Below, piece after piece: positions 21,001-24,000 of a DNA stretch of 64,000 nt; position 1 is the first letter of the stretch, and each line of letters opens with the position of its first letter. A program made the position numbers. The DNA lies in the NCBI RefSeq assembly GCF_054482595.1, contig NZ_CM137008.1, one strand, 5' to 3'.

Positions 21001-24000
21001 GTGACCGTTGTTCTTAAAGATGCCCAGGGTAACTTTATTACTGATGGTGTCGCGCAGCTTAATGAGGAAAACGTACAAGTCAGGAACGCTGATTCTATTC
21101 AAGGCAATAATTGGGTTTACAACGGCAATGGGCAATATCAAAGACAGTATATGGCGCATTTTGCGGAAGCGAACTTGAATGCGCAACTGAAGATGGCTGG
21201 TTGGAGCGATGCCAATTATTCAAAAAACTACACTATTAACAGAGGTGAAGTAAGTATGCTTCGTTCACAGCTTCGTATACGCGAAGTTTTAGTGGTAGCT
21301 GGGGCGGATATACCTGTTAGTGTTTTATTATCTGATGAATTTGGTAATCCTGTGAATGACGGTCTGGATTTGCTGACAGATGATGCAGTGTACTTACAAA
21401 ATGTGGAAAAGAAACATTGGTCCAGTTGGACATTTGTAGGTGATGGCAGATATGAGCGTACCTATATGGCTTACAAAGAAGGAGAAAACTTAAACTCTTA
21501 TCTACATATTAATGGTTGGTATGTAGGCGGGCAACCGTCTTATACCATCCTTCCTTTTGTGGAAGTCGAGTCGCTTAGTGTCAATGGTGCAAAATTCAGG
21601 GCGGCAGATGGTTTTCCCAAAACAGGGTTTGATGGTGCTAAATTTACACTGATATTAACCCACAATATGAAAAACACAGATTATAATTGGACCAGTGGCA
21701 TACAGGGTATTCAGGTCGATAGTAATGGTATGGTGACTTTAGAATTCATTATCAATAAAGAGGTTACTATTACAGGAACGCCGAAAAGCAATAAAGGGAA
21801 TAAAGTTACATATAAATTCTCACTGCAGAAATGGTTTATACCTCAAGGGATAATTCAGGAATCATGGAGTGAGATGAATTCATATTGTATTGGTAATGGT
21901 TATATACTACCGTCTAGTACGGATTTAGTTGGGAGTTCAACTAGCGGTGCTGTCCCGCGAAAAGTAGGTTCGTTATGGGGTGAATATGGTAATCTGACTT
22001 CGTATGACGGAATATTTCGCGCTGAACATTATTGGCTCGACAGCGGTATGATATTTTATCCAGGAGATGGTCATCTCTCGATTGCGCCACGTTCATCCCC
22101 ACTGTGTATGAAAACGTTCTGATATTATTTATGTTATTGCCCTGCATCAGCAGGGCAATTTATCTTCGCTCTTACGCAGAACTCCGCATCACACCAATAG
22201 TATTAAATTCATTTTTCACACTGAGCAAACGGGGGTCATGAAGCAACACATTTGACCATAAATCACTCTCTTTAATTAATTGTTGCCAGCGCTTTTCATA
22301 TTCTTTTTTACCATAAACAGTGTAAATTAACGGCAAAATCACACCATTGATTTTGTTAGTGTTAATATTTGCCAGTAACTTCATAATGTCATTTTTTATA
22401 GATGCGCCATAGATCAGAAACTTCGTATAAAGCGAGTTAACGCAGGTGTAATCAAGACCATGTTCAGGTTCAAGTTTAAGCAATAAACTTTTGGCTTTGT
22501 CATTATGTCCTTTCAGTGCCATGAACATAGCCAGAATAGATATAATAATTGGATTGTTACAGGTGTTTTGACTGTTAAGATTTAATGCAAAAGATATCGC
22601 GTTATCGAGGGGGGATGTGTAATAAAGTATAATTAATTTAAGAATGCTTATGCCCATTTTATTGGGTTCAAGAGCAATGCTTTTTTCTATTAGATTAAAT
22701 GCTCTTGCAAGGTCACCATTCAAAAAACATAGCAGAGACTGATAATAATAAACGTCTGGCGAATTAGGTTTGAGTAAATGTGCTTGTTTAAATAGCACAT
22801 TAGACACTGAATGTTCATCTTTTAGCCCACTGATTAAACCCAGTAAACCCAATGCCTGAGAATTTGAAGGGTTAATTTCCAGAGCCTTTTCAATAGAGGT
22901 TACTGCCGTAGTTATTGCTTGTTTTTGTTCACTGAGTCCAAGGAGTGCTAATGATATATGGCATTCCGCCAGGCAACAGTAGGGCAAGGTATTTTGCGGT
23001 TGCGTACTCACACAATCTCTAAATATTACTAATGCTCGTTTCAAACTTTCTGGTGTATAACGGTACATTTCCATCCTGCCATTCATATACATAACAGCAG
23101 AATCCAGAGATGGCATTTGTTGTGTATTAATGGATTTAAAATTAATGTTGGGTATTTTTTCAATAAGAATATTAATTACTTGTGATAATAGCACGGAAAG
23201 GGGATTGTCGGGGTTGAAATCAATACTTTGATGATCAATCAATTTATGCGTTCTGGCATGGATTAATTCAATAAATAAACGCCAGTTTTTACCATAGTGA
23301 ACGACCTGACCCATAATATAATATTCTGGACCTGTTTTATTGATAAACTGATGGATGGTGGAGAAATCACAGGCTTCATTCGTTACCGAAGCGGGTAAAA
23401 TATCTAAACCACAAAAAGCATATTTTGAAAGGCCCTGGACCAGTTCGTAATGGAGTTTTAGAACATTGATCGAACCTTCAGTACGAAAGGGAAAAACGGC
23501 AAGAGTGGTGGTCGACTTTACCGGTTCATTATCGGTTACAATCACAATGGGGACAGTAAAACGGTATCCACGACCATAGACCGTTTCGATATACTTACAC
23601 TGTTTATTCTCATGCAAAAGTTTACGTAATGCATAAATACACCGTGTTAAAGATTCATCGCTGGCAACACTCGCGCTCCAGACCTTATCGATAATCTCTT
23701 CTTTACTAACAATTTCACCGTCAGCATTAAGTAATAGAATGATAACGCCAAGTTCTTTCGGGGGAATATGATATTCTTTGTTTTTGAATAATAATATTCC
23801 ATTGTTTTTTAATACAAAGTCGCCAAATATATATTGTTGTGTGTTATTTTTTCCATGTTGCAGTTGCATAGAACGCTCCTTCCATTTTCTCTATTCATAG
23901 TATTAATTTGATCTGTCTAAAATAAAGTATTGGCAGAATTGCTCTATCAAAAAACGCTCATTTTGTAAGATTGTGATGAAAAAATGAATGAAAGGTGATG

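Follow-up and report, generated by a model that had tools for sequence, protein, structure and literature searches.

Closest described systems

The closest described counterparts of the gene treated here, the eilA copy in a 64,000-nucleotide stretch of Escherichia coli contig NZ_CM137008.1 (assembly GCF_054482595.1; the whole stretch is hereafter called the window), are EilA of E. coli strain 042, HilA of pathogenicity island 1 (SPI-1) of Salmonella and YgeH of the second type III secretion system (ETT2) of E. coli. In strain 042, the genes activated by EilA are eicA, eipB/C/D, eivF/eivA of ETT2 and the adhesin gene eaeX/air; mutants in eilA or air show reduced adherence and reduced biofilm (Sheikh et al., as relayed in PMC4210603, PMC7058095 and PMC11068852). 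When a Salmonella hilA mutant is supplied with the 042 protein, invF and sipA are expressed again (Hüttener et al. 2014, PMC4210603). In isolates of sequence type 69 (ST69), in which the eip locus is found together with an intact ETT2, a reporter showed the eilA promoter to be induced in LB:DMEM, which is lysogeny broth (LB) mixed with Dulbecco's modified Eagle medium (DMEM) (Fox et al. 2020, PMC7058095). The role of EilA as activator of eip, Air and ETT2 was published in 2006, and eilA is a routine virulence marker in E. coli genomics.

HilA and EilA share the same three-part architecture at similar length (553 and 565 amino acids (aa), respectively); both match the NCBIfam model NF009037, and both genes adjoin genes of the sicA/sipBCD type. 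The settings of the two genes differ: hilA lies within a complete type III secretion system (T3SS) island, beside hilD and prgH, whereas eilA lies in a small satellite island that carries chaperone, translocon and adhesin genes only, with the ETT2 apparatus about 0.9 Mb away and with no AraC regulator of the HilD/HilC/RtsA type encoded adjacent to it. YgeH resembles EilA in that a HilA-family winged helix is followed by helical repeats, and it, too, can complement a hilA mutant of Salmonella (PMC4210603). It differs in its length (458 aa), in being encoded inside ETT2 and in being expressed in LB, unlike eilA (PMC4210603); on the YgeH model, with its cut-off of 800, EilA reaches only 227 bits.

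Identity and distribution of the gene

The open reading frame (ORF) at positions 22172..23869 of the window (minus strand) is eilA, the gene for the HilA-family regulator that belongs to the selC-linked eip island of E. coli. It is intact, with an ATG start, 565 codons and an AAGGAG ribosome-binding site about 7 nt 5' of the ATG. Thirteen complete E. coli genomes contain a gene of 100% identical DNA sequence, annotated there as 'HilA family transcriptional regulator EilA'. The product scores 949.9 bits on NF009037, the HilA/EilA equivalog model (cut-off 589), in a full-length alignment of residues 1–552 with model positions 2–553 of 553, and the coding sequence is accordingly assigned to a transcriptional activator of this family. 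The gene has previously been named, annotated and functionally characterised in E. coli, and its recognition here adds an intact copy in the lineage of the window. It is carried by 730 of the 5426 complete E. coli genomes, and the exact protein is on record for 732 contigs. In XH990 and several sister genomes the matching coordinates are shifted by exactly 32,000 relative to those of the window, which therefore derives from a genome of this kind. An Rfam scan revealed no RNA element within or around eilA. For the explanation as a whole, which joins the identity of eilA, the functions published for 042 and a circuit deduced from promoter motifs, we estimate a probability of about 0.9; the circuit as such is held much more tentatively (see below).

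The orthologue in strain 042 (EC042_RS21315, WP_001176839.1) is identical to the window protein at 559 of 565 residues (98.9%). The substitutions are N9T, C167S, I443T, N503S, S535N and S563T, none of which falls in the winged helix (residues 31–104). The two loci share their chromosomal position (the eip/selC-B island), their gene order, the EilA length of 565 aa and the sequences of the boxes predicted in the promoters of eicA, eilA and air. They differ by a nucleotide divergence of 3%, by the length of the adhesin (3608 aa in the window and 3806 aa in 042, a variation in repeat number) and by a selC-A phage-like insertion that 042 additionally carries beside selC. ETT2 is reported to be intact in 042, whereas it is interrupted in strain XH990, a bearer of the window eilA allele.

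A preliminary description of the window had placed the gene convergent to the adhesin gene and downstream of the translocon operon, as the coordinates given below confirm. From this placement it had proposed that the regulator controls the translocon operon, the adhesin or both, and that it might cross-talk with a T3SS locus elsewhere in the genome; these proposals are borne out by the published work on the 042 orthologue, as reported in PMC4210603, PMC7058095 and PMC11068852. According to the same accounts, an expression test of the kind suggested there had been made earlier in 042, and its outcome was the opposite of an absence of change in island gene expression.

Domain structure of EilA

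For the comparison with Salmonella, a reference HilA (P0135) was used. The identity of P0135 was confirmed by the gene order on its contig, orgA-prgKJIH-hilD-hilA-iagB-sptP-sicP-iacP-sipADCB-sicA. A BLASTP alignment of EilA with P0135 extends over 544 residues with zero gaps, at 37% identity and 60% positives (E=1e-129), and runs through residue 552. The identity is unevenly distributed: 58% over residues 31–104 and 51.5% over residues 9–107, against 31–34% in the remainder.

The region of highest identity is an OmpR/ToxR-type winged-helix DNA-binding domain (codons 31–104; 23558..23779, minus strand), which matches Pfam Trans_reg_C at exactly these residues (E=8e-16). An AlphaFold model of EilA, computed from a 32-sequence alignment and with a confidence (pLDDT) of 82, is composed of three parts: a winged helix (residues 1–112), an alpha/beta domain (121–238) and helices in pairs that extend from residue 253 at least as far as residue 465. 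The winged helix of this model superposes on the DNA-binding domain of CadC (5ju7) with a TM score of 0.84 and a root-mean-square deviation of 1.9. The paired helices correspond to a helical region resembling tetratricopeptide repeats (TPR; codons ~253–465; 22475..23113, minus strand). The Pfam TPR matches in this region are weak (TPR_2, E=0.009; ANAPC3, E=0.005), and TPR matches from NCBIfam and the PDB span residues ~305–465; the top Foldseek matches of the model are consensus-TPR, OGT-TPR, Tom70/71, PilF and NlpI. A search of the PDB returned generic winged-helix and TPR entries only, and no structure of HilA or EilA. In the preliminary description the N-terminus was said to align closely with Salmonella HilA and the C-terminus to be TPR-like. 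The first statement is valid for the N-terminal domain, given its higher identity there than elsewhere in the protein, and the second agrees with the sequence matches, the modelled helices and the Foldseek results.

No membrane segment was found in EilA, where the highest mean Kyte–Doolittle value over 19 residues is 1.42, and the protein is therefore cytoplasmic. EilA is thus a soluble cytoplasmic activator of the HilA family, in which an N-terminal winged helix, an alpha/beta domain in the centre and a TPR-like C-terminus follow one another.

Two other class assignments were considered and rejected. A response regulator of the OmpR/PhoB type is not compatible with the Pfam result, which shows no receiver domain (no Response_reg); the NCBIfam response-regulator models match EilA only with their C-terminal DNA-binding part, far under cut-off. 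A membrane-anchored regulator of the ToxR/CadC type was rejected because EilA has no transmembrane helix and scores 49.9 bits on the CadC model (cut-off 400). The resemblance to CadC is not restricted to the winged helix, since Foldseek pairs the remainder of the EilA model with the periplasmic sensor domain of CadC; in regulators of the CadC/ToxR type, however, a single transmembrane helix connects the DNA-binding domain to the sensor domain.

A conserved box in the eicA and eilA promoters

Alignment of the intergenic regions of the window, E. albertii and a second E. coli lineage revealed an invariant block, TGAGCGnnTTTTGATA, common to the promoters of eilA and of the chaperone gene eicA. 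Both copies in the window match it exactly. The first, TGAGCGAATTTTGATA (29217..29232, minus strand), lies 61 nt upstream of the eicA start, inside the longest invariant block of the three-lineage eicA upstream alignment. The second, TGAGCGTTTTTTGATA (23945..23960, minus strand), lies 75 nt upstream of the eilA start; it is identical in 042, and in E. albertii it has one mismatch at an unchanged distance from the start codon. The box is invariant despite diverged flanks, and its distance from the start codon is kept at 59–62 nt for eicA and 75 nt for eilA.

Exact matches to the 14 specified bases occur in promoters only: those of eicA and eilA in the window, 042 and E. albertii, that of eicA in the second E. 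coli lineage (in which EilA is 57% identical to the window protein) and that of the ygeF-ygeG-ygeH operon of ETT2, which is thus preceded by the box as eilA is. The box positions recorded in the comparison loci are L013 20801..20816 (minus strand), L005 4555 and 9910, L006 4615, and L007 9892 and 18812. An island of the E. fergusonii type has a box with one mismatch upstream of its HilA homologue and another upstream of a different operon. The eilA promoter of the 57%-identity lineage carries no box of this type. The eilA promoter of the window differs in this respect from that of Salmonella hilA, upstream of which (locus L004) no box was found at up to two mismatches.

The predicted function of the two window boxes is that of InvF/MxiE-type activator sites. 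The box resembles the InvF site of the Salmonella sicA promoter, ATTGGGCGTTTTTTGAATGTT, which fits the published InvF consensus ANNGGNCNTTTTTTNAANGTT (PMC8490769), and it matches the Shigella MxiE box GTATCGTTTTTTTAnAG at 10–13 of 17 positions (PMC9769918). Its 3' half, TTGATA, lies 16–18 nt from plausible -10 elements and could serve as a -35 element, a spacing that agrees with an overlap of box and -35 element. Because the eicA and eilA promoters both carry an InvF/MxiE-type box over a -35-like TTGATA, they are most likely driven by EivF together with a chaperone. An intact EivF, the InvF homologue, is encoded by XH990, which has the identical eilA allele. The searchable literature makes no mention of these boxes; they may be described in Sheikh et al. 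2006.

It might be argued that the shared TGAGCGnnTTTTGATA sequences are not sites of an InvF-like activator and represent inherited promoter remnants or chance matches in AT-rich DNA. The Salmonella and Shigella consensus sequences are indeed matched only partially, and a one-mismatch copy with no gene downstream lies in backbone DNA at 33204..33219. By chance, however, only ~0.004 exact 14-base matches would be expected in the ~1.1 Mb considered (both strands), all exact matches lie 59–86 nt 5' of a T3SS chaperone gene, a regulator gene or a gene of the ygeF operon, and the box has remained unchanged where its flanks diverged. We regard this explanation as very unlikely.

The copy at 33204..33219 (plus strand), TGAGCTATTTTTGATA, is the third in the window and is situated between setC and a rhuM remnant beside tRNA-Sec, with no ORF downstream. 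The stretch containing it is present in 3671 of the 5426 complete E. coli genomes, most of which have no island. It was not counted as a part of the system, since it belongs to the backbone common to most E. coli; it is either left over from the promoter of an earlier selC island or has no connection with the system.

HilA-type repeats and the origin of translocon control

A direct repeat of the HilA-box type, TCATCAT-N7-TCATGAA, is present in the adhesin promoter (11210..11230, plus strand). Its binding function is predicted, and its geometry is shared with the Salmonella prgH promoter, where the sequence TTTCATTCTATTTTCATC (L004) contains TTTCAT-N5-TTTCAT, a direct repeat equivalent to TCAT-N7-TCAT. 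In the adhesin promoter, the strict TCAT-N7-TCAT core occupies 11213..11227, its end 68 nt short of the ATG. The whole window contains two matches to this core, against a chance expectation of 2.65, and one of them falls in the 201-bp adhesin promoter; in shuffles of that 201-bp region, a repeat of this kind has P of about 0.008.

In 493 kb of T3SS loci searched on both strands, 7 of 15 matches, representing six promoters, lie just 5' of prgH/eprH homologues, eivF, ygeK and air. The ETT2 genes with this geometry upstream are eprH, eivF and ygeK, and the extended form TCATCAT-N7-TCATGAA is common to the air and eprH sites (eprH: L013 12106..12126). The 'HilA box' of Lostroh & Lee 2001 reportedly consists of two hexamers 5 nt apart, a description that the prgH repeat fits. 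The repeat at 11210..11230 is also nearly palindromic.

A weaker candidate is the TCAT-rich element TTTCATTCATTTTTTCATCAC upstream of eilA (23973..23993, minus strand). It resembles the HilA box of the prgH promoter, yet 8 nt and not 7 separate its TCAT cores, and in 042 it is altered to ...TTTCCTCATCAC.

Direct binding of EilA upstream of eicA (29156..29456), with activation of the translocon operon independently of EivF, is an alternative, and the one assumed in the preliminary description. Expression of the eip genes is EilA-dependent in strain 042 (as relayed in PMC4210603 and PMC11068852), and a TCAT-rich element, TTTCATTTCATCAC (29308..29321), upstream of eicA is partly conserved in E. 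albertii. The region 29156..29456 nevertheless contains zero TCAT-N7-TCAT matches, and the InvF/MxiE-type box forms the most marked phylogenetic footprint there. In Salmonella, moreover, the homologous sicA promoter needs InvF/SicA, and EilA works there through invF (PMC4210603). Direct activation of eicA appears somewhat unlikely to us. The strongest conserved element upstream of eicA being of the InvF/MxiE type and not of the HilA type, control of the translocon may be indirect, via EivF.

A possible two-tier regulatory circuit

The two kinds of element can be combined in a model in which EilA would act in the first tier and EivF in the second. EilA would bind the TCAT-N7-TCAT repeats at air, eivF, eprH and ygeK and so control these genes directly. 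The TGAGCGnnTTTTGATA box would allow EivF, partnered by a chaperone of the SicA type (EicA or YgeG), to drive eicA-eipBCD and also to feed back positively on eilA and on ygeF-ygeG-ygeH. The release of the chaperone upon secretion would in turn feed back positively on the master regulators. This arrangement would mirror the Salmonella cascade, in which HilA acts on InvF/SicA and these act on sicA-sip, with feedback onto eilA added. We know of no such feedback link for Salmonella hilA.

A two-tier circuit with feedback governing the eip/ETT2 regulon, undescribed in the searchable literature, is put forward tentatively, as a possibility that we place a little below an even chance. The predicted cis elements bear on the choice between direct and EivF-mediated control of the translocon and on secretion-coupled feedback onto eilA. 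They are also relevant to the question of a functional secretion system under regulation, made up of ETT2 and eip.

Several observations weigh against the proposed interpretation. The cascade is predicted from motifs. Of the 15 positions specified by the InvF consensus of Salmonella, the eicA box matches only 8, and EivF scores 184.8 bits, under the InvF equivalog cut-off of 259. The HilA box as defined here is represented by a single Salmonella promoter, and the adhesin promoter of E. albertii has one mismatch in the second TCAT. Finally, ETT2 is damaged in XH990: eivJ is split by a ~28-kb resistance island and epaO is frameshifted.

State of eilA and ETT2 in related genomes

The damage to ETT2 in XH990 implies that the regulon may be only partly functional in the lineage. 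In strain Santai, the ETT2 region has undergone a large inversion and contains large resistance islands. With a damaged apparatus in XH990 and a rearranged region in Santai, the regulator may outlive a working apparatus in this lineage.

These observations raise the question of whether eilA is intact but largely idle in the lineage, either silenced (for example, by H-NS acting on DNA of 36% GC) or purposeless with a broken ETT2, and controlling at most the adhesin. In addition to the lesions in eivJ and epaO of XH990, which has the same allele, IS903B is inserted within eilA in a sister genome, strain 88COLEC (NZ_CP070906.1), so that at least one member of the clone is losing the gene. Fox et al. 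found eilA transcripts near the detection limit and detected no secreted T3SS proteins (PMC7058095), and the paralogue ygeH is repressed by H-NS. Against idleness stand the intact reading frame, the conserved promoter motifs and the number of contigs with the exact protein; eicA and the translocon genes are also intact, and the reporter in ST69 isolates is inducible in LB:DMEM (PMC7058095). On balance, a largely idle eilA seems rather improbable.

The resistance island of XH990 extends from L012 27905 to L013 7298 in the comparison loci (XH990 942904..972297) and is bounded by IS1/IS26. It is a multidrug-resistance island whose content is a class 1 integron with dfrA12, sul1, mph(A), a mer operon, aac(3)-IId and TEM-1.

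Organization of the eip island

The eip island is inserted between nepI (yicM) and yicS/nlpA, near tRNA-Sec. The low-GC block of the window that contains eilA (36–40% GC; ~22–30 kb) lies between backbone DNA of about 50% GC. The chaperone and translocon operon eicA-eipB-eipC-eipD (24072..29155, minus strand) was recognized from NCBIfam matches and annotation. Its genes, all on the minus strand, are eicA, for a SicA/LcrH-type chaperone (28658..29155), eipB, for a SipB/YopB-type translocator (26629..28410), eipC, known from annotation and with a product that has no NCBIfam match (25465..26616), and eipD, for a SipD/IpaD-type tip protein (24072..25421). A 60-aa ORF on the same strand (28466..28648), annotated as 'hypothetical protein' in Santai, occupies the interval from eicA to eipB; in strain 042 it carries a frameshift, and the sicA-sipB gap of SPI-1 has no counterpart of it.

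The gene eilA follows 202 bp downstream of eipD on the strand shared with eicA-eipBCD. A hairpin with a 10-bp stem directly after eipD (24018..24040, minus strand) is likely a terminator that sets eilA apart from the eip operon. The equivalent place is taken by a hairpin of other sequence both in E. albertii and in the lineage with 57% identity.

On the opposite strand, the adhesin gene (11296..22122, plus strand), identified from its ORF and annotation, encodes an inverse autotransporter of 3608 aa (iatC/eaeX/air), which the Prokaryotic Genome Annotation Pipeline names IatC in Santai and EaeX/Air in 042. It is convergent with eilA, with 49 bp between the stop codons. A second hairpin with a 10-bp stem in this interval (22136..22159) is likely a terminator shared by the two genes. 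Scans with sigma-70 and terminator consensus sequences gave no overall enrichment and were used only for these two hairpins. The adhesin gene is mosaic in composition: its central Ig-repeat region has ~61% GC and its last 1.5 kb 42%, against 36–41% in the neighbouring genes.

The linkage of eilA to genes of the SicA/SipB/SipD type is repeated in E. albertii, in the second E. coli lineage and in the island of the E. fergusonii type. Relative to the window protein, EilA is 76% identical in E. albertii and 57% in the second E. coli lineage. The latter was found as a divergent eip-type module (L006, Logan ERR3329175 contig, 1..11692), in which the order eicA-eipBCD-eilA is kept. The inverse autotransporter of this module lies upstream on the same strand, and the module occupies another chromosomal site, flanked by transposase fragments.

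Outside these genes, overlapping small ORFs of 119 and 107 aa are present between nepI and yicN (9016..9682, minus strand), and matching genomes annotate them as a RelE/ParE-family toxin and a helix-turn-helix antitoxin. Rfam identifies a JUMPstart RNA (RF01707, 55 bits) at 61745..61783 (plus strand), in the waa region, which is devoted to the lipopolysaccharide core.

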